Of a DNA stretch of 64,000 nucleotides, positions 548 to 64,000 are shown piece by piece. Within the stretch, counting starts at the first letter, position 1. Each line of letters opens with the position of its first letter. The DNA comes from Moniliella sp. 'wahieum' (lineage: Eukaryota), in assembly GCA_003971905.1 (NCBI GenBank), contig RSEE01000065.1, positions 1-64,000 on the forward strand, written 5' to 3'. Both the position numbers and the translations under genes were made by a program. The notes below the pieces were generated by a model, which was given only the letters and a program-made list of their open reading frames with translations, did not search any database and had not been told where the DNA came from.

Positions 548-2656
548 TTACAGTCGACGGAATTCCCAATACTGGCGGATGGCATCGGCATCGAGGTCCT
601 GAAGTTCATCCACAGTCTCCTGGGGGAGTCCCATGGATCGCATAAAGAGCACGCCCTTGTGCAGCTCGGATTTTTGCCGCTCCTCGTCCCAAGAAAGCTC
701 CTTGGCCATGATGGCCACCACACGGGGAAGCGCCGATGTGGCCGCATCCACGTCAAGGAAAGAAAGACGAGAGCGGCGTGCAAGGAAGTCGGTGGCGGTC
801 TGTGCGTACTCGTTCCTGCAGGCATAGGATACCTCAGCCTCAGTCACTGGGAAGTGGGGGTCGAGACGGGAGCGTTGAGGTCCGACTTGCCACCGTCGCA
901 GCTCGCCCGAAGCCCGGGCTTGAAGGCAGTCGGCAGTGGCCTGCTCCAAAAGCGAAAAGGCGCGGTCACCATAGTTCTGCGCCAGGTATTGGGCCACATC
1001 CGTGTCGATGTTGTAGCGCTGAATGAGGTTAACATAGAGGGTCGGGTGCCAAAGGTGAGCACCAAGAAGGCGTGTGTTCTCCGTTTGGCATGGGCCGGCC
1101 TTCTTGTCCAGTCCATACTCGCTCACAGCGCGGTCAACCGTCTGCTGTGCCATCTCGCGGTAGGTCGTCCACTTGCCGCCGGCAATGGTGAGCAAGCCCG
1201 AGGAGGAAACGTTGATCATGTGGTTGCGCACCAACGACTGGGTATCGGCCGCATCAGGGTCCTTAACCAGGGGGCGCAGGCCCTTCCATGCCGAACGCAC
1301 GTGCTCCCGGGACAGCTCGTAGCCAGGTGCAATGTACTTGCGCACCTCACCCAGAATAAAAGCAATCTCCTCTTCACTGGGAATTGGGTTCTGCTCAATC
1401 GGATCCGGATGATCGGTCGTGCCGGCAATGGTTTGACCCTGCCAAGGCAGAAAGAAGATCACACGCCCATCACTTGTACGCGCGTCCAGGAGACCTCGTC
1501 CTCGAGGGCTAAAGTAGTCGGGGAGAGTAATATGCACGCCTGATGCGGGTTGGACAATTTCCGAGGCAGAGGGAGCGTCCATTTGACGGATGGCATCAGA
1601 GAAGGGACCTGTTGCGTTGATCACACCCTTGCACTTGATGTCCCACTCCTCGCCCGAAAAGCGGTCACGCACACGCACCCCACGCACTTGGTCCTCCTTG
1701 CCTGGAACGGGCGTCTTGTGCACAGCCACCACTTCGGTGTGGTTTGCGGCTACAGCACCATGGTGAATGGCAGTCAGAGCAATCATGACGTTCATTCGAG
1801 CATCGTTCTGCTGGCCGTCGTAGTACACCACCGAGCCTGTCAAGCCATCGTCCTTGAGCAAGGGCCAGGCCTCGAGAGTAGCCTTGCGGGTCAAGACGTA
1901 GGAGCCAGACATATTCTGCGACCCAGCCAAAAGGTCATACATCTTCATACCAGCAAAGAAATAAGGAATTTGCCACCAGGTGTAAACGGGGAGCATAATT
2001 GGAAGCGGGTCGGAAAGGTAAGGTGCAATCTTGAGGAAGATACGGCGCTCATGGAGAGCCTCCCGGACCATCTTGTATTGGTCGTAGTCCAGGTTCATCA
2101 CGGCTTTCTCCAGGTAGCGCACACCTCCATGCACCAACTTGGTCGACTTGGAGCTGGTGCCAGAGGCAAAGTCGTCCCGCTCCACAAGGGCAACCTTGAG
2201 CCCACGAGTGACCGCATCGAGAAGCACGCCCGTTCCTGTCGCACCGCCACCAATGATAACGAGGTCGTACTCATCTGAGTCGTCATCCTGGACGAACGAC
2301 TTGCCCCTCTTAAGCGCATCGAGCATTTCGGCACGCGAGGGTGCACGCCAGTCAATCGGCTGGAGAAAGGAGAGGAGTCAGCGCCTGAGGGGGAAGGGGG
2401 GGGGCGTAGGGATGGGGAAACGTACCGCAGTCTCATCATGGGGGCCCTCGCGGTCATGGGGTGCGGCAAAAACAACGGCAAGCGTAGCCACAGTGCCGGC
2501 GGCGAAGAGGAGCTTGTTGACGAGCGGGTTCCCTGGTTTAGGCTGCGGACGGGGCGGGGCTGAGGAGGATGCGTAGCGGCAGGAAAAGCGGAGGGGATGG
2601 GAGGAGGGCGTGTGGGCACGTGCACGCGCAGCCTGGGCAAGTATGCGCAGCGACAT
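548..2656 (-). CDS. GUT2: Mitochondrial FAD-dependent glycerol-3-phosphate dehydrogenase
   Basis: DLVIIGGGATGTG, SGTSSKSTKLVHGGVRYLEKA and GGKWTTYR motifs. N-terminal presequence/TM exon (MSLRILAQAARAR...) starts at 2656, with an intron at ~2360-2425 (GTACGT...GCTGAC...CAG). Confidence 0.95.
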
Positions 2657-3861
2657 GGCTGACGATGGAGCGGAGAGAGCGCGGGATGGTGGTGAAGGAG
2701 GAAGAGGGAGGCCGGTGGCGTGCAGCGGCAACAACTATACGACAGCTGCTGCTGCTGGCGGCTGGCGGCTGGCTGCTGGCTCTGGTCGCCGGCTGCTGCC
2801 GGCGGCACACTTGCGTTGTCCGCATACTGCCCCCCTGCGCTGTTTCTAATACGCCGTGCGGCACCCTGGTGGCGGGAAGAAGCGGGAGGCGCATCGGCCT
2901 GCGCTGGTGTGCAGTGCATCCAGCGTGCGTCCGGGGTGCCTCGGGTGCGCCGCCTGGCTGCCCCCGTGCGCAACACAGCACACCTTCCCGCTGCCGTCCC
3001 CGCACTTCACTGAGACCACACAGCCCCCATGCCGTCGCACACGCAAACACGAGTGGGCCGCAGCCGCCACAGCAGGCACCCGAGATCTCGGCCTCCACGC
3101 TCACCGGTCACCCGTCGCCGGTCGCCGATCACCGATTACCGGGTACCGACGGCACAACCAGCACCACCATCAACATGCACCACCATCAACTTTTGGACCA
3201 GCACACCCAGCATCCGCAAAGCCATCATTCAGTACTTTGCGCTGTTGGCTCGGAGGCTGGAGGAGGATTGGCTGGCACAGATCGCTGCACGCTTCCAATG
3301 CGGTCGACCGCCTAGACCGATGCCCACAAGCGCGCAACGCCAAAAAAGGCAGCGCGGCACACCGCTCCGTGTCAATCGATCGACGATCACTGAGCTGATC
3401 AGCATAATGTTTCTCCGCATAGCTGGGTGCCCGCACCAGTACTCAGGCATTAGGCCCTAGGATGGAAGTTGCTTCCTCTTTTCACTTTGGCAGTCTGGGG
3501 TCGACAGGCATTGAAGTCCGTGTGCTGCCGGCGCGTAGCCGCCTCGGCCCGGTGGGCTAGTAGCCCGCCGCGTGAAATGCAAACACAGATGGTGTCACGT
3601 GAAGTGGTCACGTGCCCCAGCGACAGCTCTCCTACAGTGCGGTGATTTGAAGTGCAAGAAAGGAGCAATGGTGCATGTTGGGACAAGCGAGCGCCTATGA
3701 ATATGACAAGACGCGAAGACCGTATTACAAGCGAGGTGGCGGCGACGTGAAGAGCCTGGGGAGGGCACGGACCATCGACCATCGATCATCCCCACACGGC
3801 ACACAGCACGAAGAGGGAGAAGTGTGTTTATGTAGGGACGCTCAGCAGAGCGGTTACCCAA

Positions 3862-4269
3862 ACCGCGGTGGTCTAACGGCAATGATGCATCTCTTCTACA
3901 TCCTCGGGGGAAGTGAAGATGGTGTGGGCGCTAGCGTTGGGCAAAATAGGCCTTCTGATGCCCACAGCTACCGGCTCCGGTCACCAGTTCAGTTCCCAGT
4001 GCGCACAAACATCATCTTCACGTCGATGGTGGGCGTAGTGCTTACACGAGTTCCATTGATGTTTCTTGATTGGTGGATCAATATACTGGATCGCATGCTA
4101 TAATGCGCACGGTACTCGGCTTTCCGAGTGCATGTATGCGACACTGTAGCATATCATCTTTGGCACACAGCACTGGGGGCTTTCTGTCGAGTGTCCAGAG
4201 AGTACCTGCACACACACCCAGGGAAGGGAAGATAAGATTGTGATCCGGGTTCGACTCCCGGTCGCGGTA
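3862..4269 (+). tRNA. tRNA-Arg(UCU) with a 335-nt intron (exons 3862-3898 and 4234-4269)
   Basis: Acceptor ACCGCGG/TCGCGGT+A73; D-arm GTCT-AACGGCAA-TGAT; anticodon arm CATCT-CT-TCT-A|A-AGATT; T-arm CCGGG-TTCGACT-CCCGG; TTTT terminator at 4273-4276. C32 can pair with the antepenultimate intron base G4231. Confidence 0.88.
3899..4233 (+). ncRNA. Highly structured tRNA intron, candidate independent ncRNA of unknown family
   Basis: Multiple long helices found by eye (3913-3925/4009-4021; 4025-4031/4152-4158; 4092-4098/4134-4140; 4114-4119/4124-4129) and an 11-bp complementarity between 3991-4001 and 4171-4181. Confidence 0.6.
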
Positions 4270-5199
4270 TACTTTTACTGCTCATGCTGAAGGGCGTGCC
4301 GTTATGTCACGGCCCTCACGATAAACCTCACAGGTAACTCTTCTAGGCCTCTCAACCGCATCATCGCGTCTCTTAACCGATGTTGCTTCCGTGTGATTGT
4401 GTCAGTGTGTCTTTTGAGGGTCCCTTTTGGAACGTGGGATCACCAACAGTCACCCTCATCTCGCTTTTCTCTTGTGCATACTCCTCATATGGCCAATCAG
4501 CGCTGGGAAGAACCTTTTTAGGAGGTTCCGGTGGTTCTCTGATGCGCGCCGTCCCTGTACAATACTTCGTTTCTGAGGCCAGACCATGTCCTCTCCTCCT
4601 GTATTTACCCCCCGCAAACTGCTGCAATGGAAGCCGCGATGAAGAGCTTTGAGCCTAACCTCCAGCCCGTCCATAGATGTATCAAATCCATCTGCCCCCT
4701 TCCTTTCATGGCATGTTTCCTGGCAGACTCCGAACGAGATTGGAAGGCACCGAGGGAGGCGAGGGATTCAAACTGTGGCTCAGCCCGGTCCTTGGCTGCA
4801 AGCACAACCTCACGCACATTGTGAAACACTACGACACCACGTACAACACATGCTAAGGCTCGTAGACGCGGTCCTTGTCTCGTTTGCTACGATCGTTTCG
4901 CCCCGGATACCAAACAACTGCTTCTGTTTCATTTGTCTTTCCCCCGACTCCAAGAGGAAAGTACCGCAAATACGCCAACATTACTTCTAGCTGCCCGCCA
5001 CGGGCATATAAGAATGGGTGGAACCACTGTTTCATAGACTGAGAGAATGGTGAATAGCAAGATGAAGGGGCCCGGATGAAGAATCGAAAAGCAAGGCAAA
5101 AAGCATAGGACGAGTGAAACAAAGACATGAGCAGGGGTAAAATCGGTAGCCGAGGAAACGGGGTGATGAAGCCGCTGTAATGGGCACCATTGCCCGCCA

Positions 5200-6319
5200 T
5201 TACCACGCTGGAGCCCAGTTATGGTACGATGCCGGGCGAGGGTAGTCCAGTGAACCAGGGGGGGCGGCGGGGTGTGCATAGTGGTGGGGGGGGCTAGTGT
5301 AGACAGTAGGCTTCCATGGCGTGCACTCGCGATCAGGGACGAGATGAAATGAAGGCTGCTCGTTTACCCCACCACCATAGTTGCATGGAGGGACGCTTCA
5401 TGTGGGTCCGGTGGGGGAGAGTAATAGCTTGGGGCATAATGAAACGAAGCCACAGGTTGCGACACGCGTGCCTGTGGAGACGGATGGAAATGGGGGTGGG
5501 ACGAGCGGGGAGGGGCAGCGGGATGAGAGAGGGGATGCGAGTGGGGGGGGGGTAAGGGAAGGATGGGGAGCGGAGATGGTTAAGCGAGTGCCGGGTGGAC
5601 GATGGCGGGAGAATGGGTTCAGGCGGACCTGTGTCGGCATACCCGCCTTGGTGTTGAGGAGGGTATGCGGAACATGAATAGCCCCACCGCCCCCCTTGCT
5701 CCATCGGCGGGGGAAGAGGGTCGAGTGTAGGCAGTTCAGGCAGGGCGGAGATGGGTGTCGGCAGCGCCGGCTCGAGCGGAGACCCGGAGACATCAACCAC
5801 AAGCGACGGAGGGGAGTAGGAACATGGACTCGTATTGACACCAACACCAACGGTCACAGCAGGGCCGAGAGGGGCCGGAGTCGATTGAGAAATAGAAGGG
5901 GGGCACGGAGTGGGACTGTTGGATTCGACATTTGCGATGGCAGCCAGGAGCCCCGTTGGGCCATGGAGACAGCGTCCGTCGGGCAGCGGCGACGAGATGC
6001 GAGCAGGAGGGATCGCAGGTGAGGCGAGGGTTCCAGCGGAGGGTCCGCTCAGGGGACGAGGCTTGATAAGTGAACTGGGGCGGCGAGGGCGGACATGGGG
6101 TTGAGCATGGTGGGCGCGCTGACGGCGTTCACGCTGTTGCTGCTGGGCAGAGGCGAAGTAGTGGCTGGGCTGAGCGGAGAAAGGCAGATGGGAGCATGTG
6201 TCGCGCACACAGGAGATGCGACGAAGCGAGTGCAGCAACGGGCGTGGAGCGAAATGCGGCGAAGGCAGTGAGGATGAGTCTGCCATCATGGCTGGGGAGA
6301 TGGAGGCGGTGGTATGCAT
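5200..6319 (-). CDS. Hypothetical Pro/Ser-rich protein
   Basis: Long low-complexity ORF (5333-6664) with a plausible ATG near 6319, a possible short intron, and a probable frameshifted end (...SYHNWAPAW*) at ~5200. No recognisable domain. Confidence 0.35.
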
Positions 6320-13361: not shown

Positions 13362-16300
13362 TCACCACTTGCGCTTAGCCGCCGCCTTTTTCTTCGGTCG
13401 CCGTTCGTCCTCCGAGTCGTCTCCATGTTCTCGACGGTGTCGGTCGTCGGCTTTGGCCGCCTTGCGTTCCAAGGCATCCCAGTCCTCGCCTTCGTCCGAC
13501 TCGTCGTCAAAGGACGCTGAGCCCGAATCATCCGATGCGTCTTCATCAAAGTCCGACTCGGATCCAGCGGTGGACTCGTCGTCCGATCCCATGTCCCCGC
13601 CCATTGCTTCCGAAAAGTCCGACTCTTGCTCCGACTCGGAGGAGGCGTCTTCGTCGTCCGAGCTGCCCTGCAAGAACCCCCAGCCACCGACACGGAAGAA
13701 TTCCGCCGGATCGTCCTGTACCGTCTTCATGATCGCGGTCCAGTTGAGGTTGACCTGTCCGACCGAGATGGGGATGTCGACGGAATCGAGCCACTCCTTG
13801 ATGCTGTCCAGCTGTTGGCTGGGGATCGAGTTGAGGTGAACCACAGGCTTGGAGTAGTCCTTCATTACAAACACCAAATCAAAGTTCTTCAGACCATACT
13901 GCACGCGTTCCAGGTGAGCAATCTCCACCTCGGCCAAGGTAAGGACAAAAAAGGGGGGTTCAGAAAGATGGACCAGGGCGTCCATAGTCGGCGCAACCAA
14001 CACCGAGCTGCGGAAGGGAACCGCATTGAACGCTAGCTCGCGGAACGGAATGTCCATCTCCAGCCGTCCGCGGCTGGCATCAGCAATCTTTTGGGTAAAC
14101 GCCTTGAACTCCTTGTTAAGTTGGTGACGGTGCCTCCGTTCCTCGTTTTCCAGCTCAATCTCATCGTCGTCACCGGTGCGCTTGCGTTTTCGGTTCCCGG
14201 TCTCGTCAAACTGCACATCGCTCGCCTCTCGGAAGAACTGAATATCGCGGGCCTCTTCTTACCGACCATGATGGGATGCTTCAAGTGCACATGCACCAGC
14301 ACAATCAGCTCATGGTCGGTCGGTTGGCTGGAAGAAGAGGTGCTTGATGTTGCTAAACAGCAAATCCACCTTCTGGTGGAGCGGCGAGGTAAACCGGAGG
14401 CCGTTTTGGTGGATCTCCAGGTCCCCGGGTACCCGTTTGCCCTCCAATGCTGGGCGTGGGAACACCTCGCGAAGCACTGGTGGGCGCTGTTTGTTGAGAA
14501 TCAGTTTCTCCTGCTCCACCACGTCGGCCAACTCCTTCTTTTCCGCCTCACGCTTGGTCGCTGCCTTCTTAAATTCGGTGATCTCCTTGTAAAGCTCAGC
14601 GAAATGATACGCATCTTGGCTGCGGAAAGTCATGTTGCGAACAAACGTCGCATCTGGGTCTTCAAACGGCTGGTCCTCCTTCTTGCCCAAGATCTGTCCC
14701 GGGGAGATAAAGTTGAAGCGGAGGTAAGTCCACTCTCCCTCGTCAGATTTGGACAGGTTCTTGAGGGTATGGATATGGAACGGCACGGCAAAGCCATAGA
14801 TGGGGATGATGATGGACGAGGCGCGCTGGTCGAGGAAGATCTTCAGGTCCTTAGCCCGCGAAGGAACCACGTGGTCCCCCTTGTAGCTCTCAAACCGCTT
14901 CCACACCTGACCTCTCGACTTGCTCTCCCCCCCATCGTCGTTGTCAAAGCGAGCGAGGCCCTCCTCTTGCTTCTGCCGAGCGAGCTCCTTCTGGTGCTCC
15001 TTGATGCGATTGTCCACACTTTCCTCTTGGTTGGTGGTGCGGTTGGAACTGCGTAGGCGTCGCCCGCCAAACGACTCGAGAAGCGCATCATCCGCCTTGG
15101 CTTTCGGTTTGGGCTTGGGTTTCTCCTCCTCGCTCTTTTCTTGGAAGAAGGAAAGGTCCGAGGTGGACTTGACCGCCGTTGTCAGGAAAGACGCAGGTGC
15201 ATTTGCATTGACCCTCACAGTGTCGATGAGGAGAAGAGCGTAGGTCTTGCCCGGGTGGTTGGGGTCGGGGATGTTCTCCACCCCAAGGCTGACATCAAAA
15301 ATCATGTCCTTCTTGATTTTCCGCTCGTTGCGTGGTGAAAGGGAAAGGCAGAGTCGCGGAATTCCAGGCCAGTGGCAAACCCAATCGACTTTGTCAGGTA
15401 GGAAGCAAGGTCGGGGTCCTTGGACTGAAGAAATTCGACTGCCTGGTTGTAAACCTGTTTGCCCGTCACGCCCTCGCGAAGGAAGTCCGAAGCGACCTTT
15501 TGTTGCGTCTCGAGGAGGAGCGAATAGGCAGCTGATTGCTTCTCGTGAGGGTCAACCAGATAGGTACGCCCCACATTGGAGCAATAGGAGCGGTAGCGAA
15601 TTCCCACCTCGGCAATGATCACACTGCCCCCTCCGTCGGCACCCTCGAGACGTTTGTTGTTGCTCTGGGCCGAGCTACGCAGGTCGTACTCGCCGCCACT
15701 CATGATGATGGGGGTGTAGCACAAGTCAGCATAAGACGGGTCCAGATCAGGCAAGACAGCCTTCTGCTTGCGCCAAAAGCTATTGTCGTCCAGCTTGTTC
15801 TCAATATTGATAGCCAACTTTTCGTGGGAGACCTTGCGTCCATCATCAAGAACGTTGGACATCTCATCCACCAAGTAGTCCTTGAGCAGTGCTGTCGACA
15901 TCTTGGCCGCAATACGGGTGAACTTGATTTCCTCCTCGTCTTTGGCGGCCCAGATGGCGCTGAAGGCAGGACCAACATCGAGGGATACCCACTTGTTGGT
16001 ATCAATTGCCTTGCCCCAGACTGAGCCCCACTCTTCGGCAAACTTGCCTACCACTTTGTCCTTGGAAAAGATCCCCACCTGGCCCGAAGTGGCATCCTTG
16101 ACCTGAGCAAAGAGGGCATCCCAGCCTGCCTTGTTCACTGCTTCGTCCTTACTCCGCTTGATAATCTCGACGGCAACACCCTCCTGGTTCTTGGCCAGCG
16201 GCTCGAGAAGTTGAGCTGTGCGAATGTCAGAGTCAGCCTTGAACAGGTCGCAAGAGGGGGTTAGAGAGGGGGCTTACCCTTGGCAGATGAAGTGACAAAT

Positions 16301-26023: not shown

Positions 26024-27214
26024 TCATGCACGCAGTCCTCCCACCTCAGCGCTGTGGGCCTTGCCCTCGTAGATCATCTCGGCCATGACCTTACCTGTGC
26101 CAGGCCCGAGGGTAATGCCCCAGCAGGTATGGCCTGCCGCAATGTAGAGTCCTGTTTCGGGCAGGCCGTCAATCAAGGGGCCACGGAACGCTCCGGCCGG
26201 AGGTAGCACGCGTGCTGTGCCTCGAGCAAGGCACCATCGCCCAAGCAGGTAGGTGCAATGATGCGAATCTGCTCCATGAGTTTTTTGGTCTGGCGCGGCT
26301 CGTAGCCAATGTCATCTGCCAGCCGGGCAGCGGCTCATTGTCCGAGCCACCACAGATGTACACCGTTCCGTCCCCGCGGGCATAAATCTCCGGTCCACGA
26401 GCAACAATGCCCGTGTCCCCAAAGCGCATGTCGGTGAAGAGGCAGTGAGCGGTTGTCGGCCTGGTACCGCGAAGAATGATCGAGTGCGCACGAGAGCCAC
26501 CGACAGTACGGCCTTTGCGAGCGACCTTGCTGTGGTACAGCAGGCTGGTAGGTTGGATCAAATTCTTGAACAGCTCTCCGGTCCAAGGCCCTGCGGCCAC
26601 CACCACCCGGTCACAATCCAGCGTTTCCGCCCGGGCGCCATCCACACTCTCAATCACCAGACCCTTGATCGTGTCTTCTTCCGAAAGGAGAATCTGAGTA
26701 GCCTTGGTGCCCACCCCACTCGACGCCTTGCTGTTTGCACGCCTCCTCGACCAAGTACTCAACAAGGAACTTGGGTGTGACCTGGGCCGTCGAACCCTTG
26801 CCGCCCATCTGTTTGGTAGAGGTGACAATCTTGGGGTCGATCCAGTGCAGCTCCTTGGGACACTTGGAGCGATGCTTGGAAGTGTCAATGTTGACCTGCA
26901 GCGTTTCGACCTCGCGGTACCCCCAGCGCTCAACGCCATTCCCTCCTCCGCCAGGTCCTTGTGCAGCTGATAACTGAGACGGGCCAAAGAAGAGGTGGAG
27001 AAGCCGTGCCAATCGCGGGCCAAGAAGCCGCCAGAACGGCCACTGGCCGACGCCGCCAGCTCATAGCTCGCCTCGAGAAGCGTCACCTTGCTGCCGGGCG
27101 GGCGGTAGGGATGCTTGGCCATGTAATACAGGATGGATGCGCCTATGATGCCGCCGCCAATGATACCACGTGCTGGGGTGGGGTGTGGGTGTGGGTGTGC
27201 TGGAAGGAGGACAT
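26024..27214 (-). CDS. FAD-dependent oxidoreductase (DAO/Tda3-like)
   Basis: IIGGGIIG, ASGRSGGFLARDW, VVAAGPWTG, PEIYARGDGTVYICG, AAGHTCWGITLGPGTGKVMAE. Confidence 0.88.
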
Positions 27215-55766: not shown

Positions 55767-56290
55767 AGGTTGGGACGGAGGGTAGGAGGGAGTAGGATAC
55801 GACGTGCACCCCTTGCCATGCGGCAACGACGAGGAGATCGTGGCCCACCCCTCTGTGCCGCTCCGAGTGTTTCTCTTGCATCTGTTTCCCATGGTCCTTT
55901 CTTTTCCGTAGGTATCTTTTGCTCCACGGCCCTTTCCCCCGCCTCCCGCCATGTTTCGCTTTCCTCCCTCTTCCATCTGCCCTACCCGCCTTTCCTCCCC
56001 CGTCTCGAGGTGAACTTTTTTTTTGTCTATTGTTTGGTGCTGGAACGCCGACAAGCTGCTTCCCCCATCCGCCATTGATCTACATACACCATTTCCTCAG
56101 GTCCTCTTCAGCTGCGAGCTGCACAGGTGGAGTGGCGGAGAGACGGTTGTAGGTGGCAGCTGGTGAGATGCAGACAACGTGCTATAACGCGCACTGGATT
56201 CGATTGCTCACATGGGGATCGCAGTGACTAGTGACTAGTGAGGACGATCGAATGGGCCGTCAGCGCGTCAGTACAGTTCCAAAAGTAAAG

Positions 56291-56361
56291 TGGACGAACA
56301 GGGAATTGAACCCGGACCTCATGCATGCTAAGCAAGCGCTCTACCCCTGAGCTATCCGCCC
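56291..56361 (-). tRNA. tRNA-Ala(AGC), intronless
   Basis: GGGCGGA TA GCTC AGGGGTA GAGC G CTTGC TT AGC AT GCATG AGGTC CGGG TTCAATT CCCTG TTCGTCC A. G3:U70 Ala identity pair, followed by a T-run. The variable loop/T-stem looks one base short. Confidence 0.92.
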
Positions 56362-62910: not shown

Positions 62911-64000
62911 TTACGCCCACACAGCTTGGCGCGGGCGCATGTAGTTGGAGGAACGGTGGTGCGGCATGCGCTTCTTCAGTTGAGCTTCGATGTGCGCCTC
63001 GGTGCGTGCCTGAACGGCAGCGTTGCGTTCGGCCCGAGTGGAGCGACGGCGGCGGTCCGAGCCCGAGCCCGAGCCCGAGGTGGCAGAGGAAGAGTGCTTC
63101 GGCTTGCGGTGGCATTGCCCGCCCTTCTTGGAGGAAGTGGGGGCAGGCTTAACCAGCGAGCTGGACGAGGAGGCACTGGCGCTGACCGACGGGCGCGGCT
63201 TGCGGTGCGACGAAGAGGAAGAAGTGGGAGAAGCTTGGGCACCACTCTTGCTCTTGCTCTTGGACTTGGTGGACGCCGTAGCAGAGGTAGCCGACGAGCT
63301 CTTGCTCTTGGACGCACTCTTGGAGCTGGAGCTGGAACCGGAACCGGAACCGGCGGCCGACGAGCCAGCCGATCCCGAGCCCGAGCTCGGCGAGCTCGAG
63401 CCCGCGCTGGAACCCGCGCTGGAACCCGAGCCCGAGCCAGCAAACAGGGCAAAGTTCTTGTAGTACGTCTGAACGGCATTGGGGGTTGCCCACTCAGAGC
63501 CCGAGCCACCAAAGAAGGTGGTGAACATGATCTTGTCGACCCAGTTGTCCGACGAAGCACGGGGAGCGAGCGCGTGGCTCTCCCCCGCGTCCAGGGAGCG
63601 GCGCGACTGGCTCGAGCTGCCCGAACGGAAAACAATGTTGTTCAAGTGAATGCTGGGCTGGGCTTCGCCATTGAAAAAGAGCTCGACCAAGCCGTCGGCC
63701 TTGCCTTCCGAGTTGAGCTTGACGTGCAACGCCAGATCGTTCCATTTGCCCTTTTGGAACGAAAACGCACCGCGGCCGATCGAAGTGCCGTAGTCCGAGT
63801 TGCAGATCAACTTGGAGCCCTTGGCAGTCGACGAGGCGGCCGGACACAGGTGGTAGTCCGTGCCAGACAGGGTGGTGGGGATGTAAGCGTACACTTCCGC
63901 CTGGCCATCTTTACGCCACATGATACGCGTGGACCAGCACGTGGACCCCACCCCGCCCTCGGAGCCGCCTTCGCACCCCGACGTGTCGGCGTCGAGCGTG
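62911..64000 (-). CDS. Polysaccharide lyase family 14 protein (5' end outside the window) with a Ser/Gly/Lys-rich tail
   Basis: CWSTRIMWRKDGQAEVYAY, CNSDYGTSIGRGAFSF..GKW, ADG, IMFTTFFGGS..WATP. Confidence 0.88.
   Translation of the reverse strand, partial: TLDADTSGCEGGSEGGVGSTCWSTRIMWRKDGQAEVYAYIPTTLSGTDYHLCPAASSTAKGSKLICNSDYGTSIGRGAFSFQKGKWNDLALHVKLNSEGKADGLVELFFNGEAQPSIHLNNIVFRSGSSSQSRRSLDAGESHALAPRASSDNWVDKIMFTTFFGGSGSEWATPNAVQTYYKNFALFAGSGSGSSAGSSAGSSSPSSGSGSAGSSAAGSGSGSSSSSKSASKSKSSSATSATASTKSKSKSKSGAQASPTSSSSSHRKPRPSVSASASSSSSLVKPAPTSSKKGGQCHRKPKHSSSATSGSGSGSDRRRRSTRAERNAAVQARTEAHIEAQLKKRMPHHRSSNYMRPRQAVWA

Follow-up and report, generated by a model that had tools for sequence, protein, structure and literature searches.

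Eukaryotic tRNA introns are given as 6-133 nucleotides (nt) long in a 2014 review (PMC4090602), and across 3,723 yeast tRNA introns the interquartile range is 15-31 nt (PMC5951914). The closest described counterparts of the intron analysed here come from Krassowski et al. 2018, who found that canonical introns in the tRNA-Leu(CAG) genes of Kluyveromyces, Eremothecium and Lachancea kluyveri measure 134-318 nt (PMC5951914). These tL(CAG) introns are described as rich in predicted structure, missed by tRNAscan-SE and kept across several genera, and the authors suggested that their role may be to delay maturation or to guard against toxins of the anticodon-nuclease type (PMC5951914). The eukaryotic bulge-helix-loop contains an anticodon-intron (A-I) pair between C32 or U32 and the antepenultimate A or G of the intron, and the pairing extends to other bases of the anticodon loop (PMC10275265). 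According to a further report, introns in tR(UCU) genes have been conserved in both fungi and animals (PMC12168002). Here we analyse a 64,000-nt stretch of Moniliella sp. 'wahieum' DNA (assembly GCA_003971905.1, contig RSEE01000065.1, positions 1 to 64,000 of the forward strand; hereafter the window), in which a nuclear class I tRNA-Arg(UCU) gene is interrupted exactly between nt 37 and 38 by an intron of 335 nt. Judged from its sequence, this is probably a still-functional gene under low demand, in which a short ancestral intron has expanded.

When 3862-3898 is joined to 4234-4269, ARAGORN reads a 73-nt class I cloverleaf of tRNA-Arg with the anticodon TCT. This call and the recomputed coordinates agree with the initial annotation, which had proposed a tRNA-Arg(UCU) split after nt 37 by 335 nt. 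Its counts for two stems were likewise reproduced: the acceptor stem has 7/7 pairs, one of them G-U (7:66), and the anticodon stem has 4/5, position 27:43 being a C.U mismatch. The D stem has 3/4 pairs, with U.U at 13:22, and the T stem 5/5. The anticodon loop is the 7-nt CTTCTAA, in which position 33 is U and position 37 a purine; positions 15 and 48 form an A:T pair. Against the textbook consensus for conserved and semi-conserved tRNA positions, 24 of 24 checked are intact, including U8, A14, R15, G18, G19, A21, U33 and R37 in the 5' exon and Y48, G53, T54, T55, C56, R57, A58 and C61 in the 3' exon. The cloverleaf, the anticodon loop and the conserved core bases are thus all those of a class I tRNA-Arg(UCU).

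The initial annotation had warned that default finders may miss the gene, and they do. The locus is unreported by default ARAGORN and by Rfam at the gathering threshold, and Rfam at E<=10 on the unspliced region 3700-4450 returns nothing tRNA-like there. When introns of up to 1000 nt are allowed, ARAGORN calls a gene on the unspliced DNA with outer ends exactly at 3862..4269 and a score of 105.9. Chance was controlled with 30 dinucleotide-preserving shuffles of the whole 64-kb window, searched by ARAGORN with introns allowed. These gave two false intron-containing calls, both with odd intron positions, the better scoring 103.6 (below 105.9). At a relaxed threshold the real window yields 30 calls, of which only the Arg gene and a tRNA-Ala lie above 98.1. 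Since the locus scores above the shuffles and above all other relaxed calls but that of tRNA-Ala, the observation is taken to be real. The exon stretches, used as exact strings, had no match in two scans of bacterial and archaeal genome contigs, an empty result that was expected. Genes of this kind are invisible to default annotation (default ARAGORN and Rfam here, tRNAscan-SE for the yeast cases), and a genome could therefore wrongly seem to be without a tRNA-Arg(UCU) gene.

ARAGORN scores the joined exons at 113.1 as Arg(tct), above the 111.6 of the uninterrupted tRNA-Ala of the same window; a Leu form of the joined sequence is nearly equal at 113.5. The same ambiguity appears on the unspliced DNA, where ARAGORN parses the call at 105.9 as a tRNA-Leu(AAG) whose variable region is long and whose intron, of 328 nt (3896-4223), separates positions 34 and 35. 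We find this parse scarcely credible. Its intron would sit at a non-canonical position, not known to be cut by the body-measuring eukaryotic endonuclease, its drawn anticodon stem carries a C/A mismatch adjoining the loop, and its 'long variable arm' is stemless, unlike that of a class II tRNA-Leu. The Arg parse is preferred because the intron lies at the canonical 37/38 site and the product is a standard 73-nt class I tRNA, with the 15:48 pair, a 5-nt variable loop, U33, A37 and the C32:G anticodon-intron pair. The tRNA-Ala used for comparison is an intron-less tRNA-Ala(AGC) at 56290-56361 on the minus strand, which scores 54.4 bits in Rfam; its ARAGORN drawing contains a U.U pair in the anticodon stem and one unpaired T-stem position.

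For the precursor, a constrained fold was calculated in which the helices of the mature domain were enforced and the remainder was left to fold freely. The pairing of CTTCT with GGAAG that the initial annotation described, with C32 opposite the antepenultimate G and a 3-nt bulge, is seen in this fold: C3893:G4231 is followed by four pairs between 3894-3897 and 4227-4230, one U.G among them. The helix proposed to close the intron (3901-3908 / 4217-4224) also exists, with seven pairs rather than the eight implied; C3905 and A4220 are mismatched and one of the seven pairs is U.G. At the 5' splice site only A3898 (A37) is unpaired, between U3897:G4227 and C3899:G4226, so that this minimum-energy prediction for one sequence has a tight bulge there and not an open loop. 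The intron has three hallmarks of a canonical one, namely the 37/38 position, the A-I pair and the 3-nt bulge at the 3' site. As modelled, the geometry of the locus fits the canonical bulge-helix-loop read by the eukaryotic tRNA splicing endonuclease; cleavage itself is predicted.

The cost of this arrangement is small. The cloverleaf-plus-intron structure has an energy of -145.6 kcal/mol, against an unconstrained minimum of -148.5, a gap of 2.9. Pair probabilities taken from the unconstrained partition function are 0.77-0.85 for the anticodon-intron helix, 0.93-0.99 for the T stem and 0.67-0.90 for the acceptor stem, except for its closing G.U pair (0.19). Coordinates are collected in Table 1.

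Table 1. Coordinates of the tRNA-Arg(UCU) gene, its predicted precursor structure and other features of the window.
Feature	Position	Strand	Basis and details
5' exon of tRNA-Arg(UCU), tRNA positions 1-37	3862..3898	+	37 nt; acceptor 5' strand, D arm, anticodon stem 5' strand, C32 U33 U34 C35 U36 A37
Intron at canonical 37/38 position	3899..4233	+	335 nt; composition G94 C83 T83 A75
3' exon, tRNA positions 38-73	4234..4269	+	36 nt; A38, anticodon stem 3' strand, 5-nt variable loop, T arm, acceptor 3' strand, discriminator A73
Anticodon-loop strand CTTCT (C32-U36) of anticodon-intron helix	3893..3897	+	constrained fold; C3893 is the exon partner of the A-I pair
Intron strand GGAAG of anticodon-intron helix	4227..4231	+	constrained fold; G4231 is the antepenultimate intron base, partner of C32
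3-nt bulge (A, U, A38) holding the 3' splice site between 4233 and 4234	4232..4234	+	constrained fold
5' arm of intron-closing helix	3901..3908	+	constrained fold; present also in fold of intron alone
3' arm of intron-closing helix	4217..4224	+	constrained fold; present also in fold of intron alone
Largest internal hairpin of intron (inverted repeat)	3910..4024	+	arms 3910-3925 and 4009-4024, 88% complementary; in constrained, unconstrained and intron-alone folds
A-box region of internal RNA polymerase III promoter, tRNA positions 8-19	3869..3879	+	TGGTCTAACGG; sequence read
B box, tRNA positions 52-62	4248..4258	+	GGTTCGACTCC; exact match to GGTTCGANNCC
TTTT run, likely RNA polymerase III terminator	4273..4276	+	4 nt past gene end
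GUT2-like mitochondrial glycerol-3-phosphate dehydrogenase open reading frame (ORF)	548-2326	-	592 aa; DAO + DAO_C domains
SPT16 + PH_SPT16 domains (FACT complex)	14310-15305	-	Pfam
Second, shorter FAD-dependent oxidoreductase (DAO) ORF	26169-27122	-	domain match
Polysaccharide lyase family 14 domain ORF	62911-63951	-	domain match

An internal RNA polymerase III promoter can be read in the two exons. The segment 3869..3879 is what we take to be the A box, by an assumed consensus and not by computation. The B-box consensus is matched 16 times in the window when one mismatch is tolerated and only twice exactly, the B box of the Arg gene being one of the two. The putative terminator lies in an ACTTTT context common to the 3' flanks of the Arg gene and of tRNA-Ala, the latter flank being TTTACTTTTGG. 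This shared context suggests that a run of four T may be enough as an RNA polymerase III stop in this organism. As regards demand, AGA is the rarest Arg codon in the four Pfam-supported ORFs of the window (5/119 Arg codons), and demand for tRNA-Arg(UCU) is therefore expected to be low.

Besides ARAGORN's own preference for Leu on unspliced DNA, several observations weigh against a working gene. These can be summarised as (i) the spacing from A box to B box, start to start, is 379 bp, at or just past the roughly 365 bp up to which separations are stated to be compatible with transcription (PMC12498455); (ii) the tRNA body has two stem mismatches, U13.U22 and C27.U43; (iii) in the unconstrained ensemble the pair probability of the anticodon stem is 0.19-0.44 and that of the D stem only 0.06-0.07; (iv) with the native intron interior, the tRNA body and the anticodon-intron helix are no more free to form than with shuffled interiors, 23% and 19% of 150 shuffles respectively being at least as good; and (v) the intron is without any TTTT, as are 1620/2547 (64%) of the 335-nt windows on the same strand. 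Selection for an intron that spares the tRNA fold is not detectable with the 150 shuffled interiors, and the lack of TTTT is uninformative on selection because 64% of windows share it. In addition, exons would be expected to look intact for a short time after an inactivating insertion as well. On the spacing, a flexible linker is believed to connect the two halves of TFIIIC (bioRxiv 10.1101/2020.04.17.046805).

Much of this evidence would also suit a pseudogene, that is, an intron-containing tR(UCU) gene silenced by some 300 nt inserted or grown in its short intron, in a recent event and with another copy elsewhere doing the work. The A-B spacing, the two mismatches and the absence of a selection signal in the intron all point that way and, AGA being rare, losing one copy would cost little. 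Against decay stand the 24 of 24 conserved positions, the perfect B box, a terminator in the same context as that of a good tRNA gene, and the full splice geometry that both ends of the intron still supply. The mismatches alone are no sign of decay, as tRNA-Ala also has a U.U pair and an unpaired T-stem position, and in yeasts introns of 134-318 nt are described as kept across several genera (PMC5951914). A pseudogene is for these reasons a serious alternative, although we think it rather unlikely; if it is one, the locus is an ordinary relic.

The reading we prefer is that of a low-demand tRNA-Arg(UCU) gene that probably still works. Its anatomy and splice geometry are established by the sequence, whereas its transcription, splicing and use in translation, and the way in which its intron grew, are inferred. 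We propose that TFIIIC, bound to the A box (3869) and the B box (4248), directs RNA polymerase III to start upstream of 3862. The polymerase would then transcribe the whole intron, where four T never occur in a row, and would stop at TTTT 4273-4276. In the resulting precursor of about 410 nt the tRNA body would fold, GGAAG (4227-4231) would pair with C32-U36, and the rest of the intron would form hairpins closed by 3901-3908 / 4217-4224. The splicing endonuclease, measuring from the tRNA body and using the C32:G4231 pair and the 3-nt bulge, would cut after 3898 and after 4233. The two halves would then be sealed by a fungal Trl1-type ligase, giving a 73-nt tRNA for the rare AGA codon. The short ancestral tR(UCU) intron probably grew inside a tRNA gene for which demand was low. 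An active gene would raise the known upper size of canonical tRNA introns and would provide a natural test of the reach of TFIIIC across about 380 bp.

The initial annotation had spoken of a large passenger in the intron. No such passenger could be established: there is no sense-strand Rfam family at E<=10 in the searched region 3700-4450, Pfam gives no match, and the window contains no repeat copy of the intron. A functional RNA released by splicing (snoRNA-like or regulatory, possibly circular), in the manner of the archaeal tRNA-Trp intron or the animal circular tRNA-intron RNAs, is nevertheless conceivable. Precedents for intron-borne or stable intron RNAs are published, and the sense strand folds somewhat better than its shuffles (z -1.90, 3/100 as good). 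The antisense strand, however, folds even better (z -2.77), which as modelled suggests that the cause is inverted repeats in the DNA and not an RNA structure specific to one strand. Covariance models add only three weak antisense box C/D matches, at 4261-4369 and 3942-4022 on the minus strand (ceN40 E 0.15, snR76 E 4.4, sR1 E 2.2). One of these overlaps the 3' end of the tRNA; the other two fall within the intron. Their 11.8-17.8 bits are far below gathering scores of 35-55; a GAUGAUG-like C box is present in each, no terminal D box (CUGA) was seen in any of the three by reading, and they are probably chance matches. Fungal ligation follows the Trl1 heal-and-seal route rather than RtcB (PMC10946435), and a circular intron product is therefore not expected by default. 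An intron-borne functional RNA thus seems improbable to us. We take the intron, which is moderately hairpin-rich, to be expanded filler and not a gene.

Other possible contents were considered and rejected. A self-splicing group I intron is contradicted by the lack of a covariance-model match and by the nuclear character of the surrounding DNA (SPT16 and GUT2-like genes); neither group I nor group II intron families match at E<=10 in 3700-4450. Nor is a mobile element or repeat supported: when 3700-4450 was compared with the window by BLAST, it matched only itself and 15 short segments of 12-23 nt, all with E>=0.48. No tandem repeats were found in the intron, and no clear terminal inverted repeat with target duplication was apparent by eye. 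As to a nested tRNA, ARAGORN at a threshold relaxed to 80% makes only one poor call in the intron, with a score of 86.8, an undetermined isotype and a 4-base anticodon. Coding sequence is equally unsupported: ORF 3675-4103 and seven other ORFs in 2098-5279 have no Pfam match at E<=0.1, bar one to LVIVD (12.5 bits, E 0.097). ORF 3675-4103 itself, on the plus strand, encodes 142 aa from an ATG start. It begins in the upstream flank, crosses exon 1 and extends 205 nt into the intron, and such an open frame has probably arisen by chance in G+C-rich DNA. A scan for bacterial promoters and terminators found 0 sites, which is irrelevant to a eukaryote.

How the intron grew was approached by alignment. 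A 14/17 direct repeat, 3908-3924 / 4226-4242, spans the 3' splice site and prompted the idea of growth by partial duplication of the gene or of a junction. Alignments of the intron interior with the exons, the junctions and the joined tRNA are no better than those of dinucleotide shuffles (p 0.26-0.99), and the duplication idea was therefore dropped. The only nominal signal in the alignment test is an exact 12-nt direct repeat, GGCACACAGCAC, found on the plus strand at 3798-3809, about 55 nt upstream of the gene, and at 4162-4173 inside the intron (p about 0.01, nominal, before correction for 10 tests). A further upstream feature is GACCATC, present three times in tandem at 3770-3790 (+), about 75 nt from the tRNA gene. 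It could also be asked whether the intron entered the gene only on paper, through an assembly artefact or chimeric join that put unrelated DNA inside a normal tRNA gene. This is very improbable, since the insert starts precisely between nt 37 and 38 and its two ends pair both with one another and with the anticodon loop, as those of a random misjoin would not; moreover, the region has no N and no repeat apt to cause misassembly.

The tRNA gene sits in a stretch of about 3 kb without supported coding sequence, in a window of about 60% G+C. Among named relatives, those closest to the GUT2-like protein belong to Thecaphora, Tilletia, Ceraceosorus, Jaminaea and Tilletiaria (Ustilaginomycotina) and are 63-66% identical to it; two database proteins reach 88-90% identity. 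By this sequence evidence the host is a basidiomycete of Ustilaginomycotina type, and the DNA is nuclear. Many homologues of the GUT2-like protein are 750-900 aa long, with C-terminal EF-hand domains that are not in the 592-aa ORF; the missing C-terminal part may be encoded by a further exon below 548, or be absent. The SPT16 segment adjoins other minus-strand ORFs, and the three (13362-14216, 14310-15305 and 15302-16138, of which only 14310-15305 was scanned for domains) may be exons of one intron-split nuclear gene. In the DAO ORF at 26169-27122, AGA and AGG account for 13/33 Arg codons, far above their share in the other three ORFs examined for codon use.

With ordinary eukaryotic tRNA introns the Moniliella intron shares its position, the pair of C32 with the antepenultimate purine, the loop complementarity and the 3' splice-site bulge (PMC12168002, PMC10275265, PMC4090602). 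It differs in being 335 nt long, as against 6-133 nt (PMC4090602), and lies outside the described ranges also when the largest intron described, of 318 nt, is counted. Intron length is a descriptive trait and not a known requirement of the endonuclease. In our literature searches no nuclear tRNA intron above 133 nt was reported besides those of PMC5951914, none above 318 nt and none for Basidiomycota. The initial annotation, which called the intron exceptionally large, had nonetheless overstated its rarity, in view of the canonical nuclear introns of 134-318 nt described for budding-yeast tL(CAG) (PMC5951914).

Two further systems offer partial parallels. A Drosophila tRNA-Tyr gene has a 113-nt intron that is the source of a circular tRNA-intron RNA (PMC8450103, PMC4536317). 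It and the Moniliella intron are both long canonical introns overlooked by an older tRNA finder, and the Moniliella intron, which is three times longer, would be cut out by the same splicing machinery. The archaeal tRNA-Trp intron, which nests a box C/D RNA (PMC4090602), likewise occupies the canonical position and is long through its inner content. Here, in contrast, there is no credible sense-strand box C/D RNA, and the structure is a bulge-helix-loop and not a strict bulge-helix-bulge.

The nearest likeness is to the tL(CAG)-Z introns of yeasts, as they are described in PMC5951914. In both cases a nuclear fungal gene is interrupted at the 37/38 site by an intron an order of magnitude above the usual length, with extensive predicted structure; both were missed by a standard finder and both serve a rarely used codon. 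The differences are that the yeast introns belong to Saccharomycotina and to Leu CAG and the present one to Basidiomycota and Arg UCU, that 335 nt is 17 nt above the published maximum, and that the yeast introns are conserved across genera whereas here there is one sequence. The gene falls outside the tL(CAG)-Z orthogroup, as its anticodon is UCU and the host proteins are closest to those of Ustilaginomycotina. Another phylum and another tRNA together imply an independent expansion, and the Moniliella intron is therefore an analogue, not an orthologue, of tL(CAG)-Z.

Should the gene be active, giant tRNA introns would no longer be confined to a single lineage of budding yeasts: they would have appeared anew in a distant fungal phylum, and once more in a tRNA for a rare codon. 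A bolder version would have this as a working gene with the longest canonical nuclear tRNA intron recorded (335 against a published 318 nt), arisen independently in Basidiomycota, and as one instance of a general rule by which low-demand isoacceptors can evolve giant structured introns. We put this forward as speculation that is unlikely to hold in full. Were it true, giant introns might serve to restrain or time the maturation of the tRNA, or to protect the anticodon loop against anticodon nucleases, a role that has been proposed for yeast tL(CAG). Alternatively, they might release a stable intron RNA that has its own function. A giant canonical tRNA intron is already a known kind, and the Moniliella locus is a modest extension of it: slightly longer, in another phylum and in another rare-codon tRNA.

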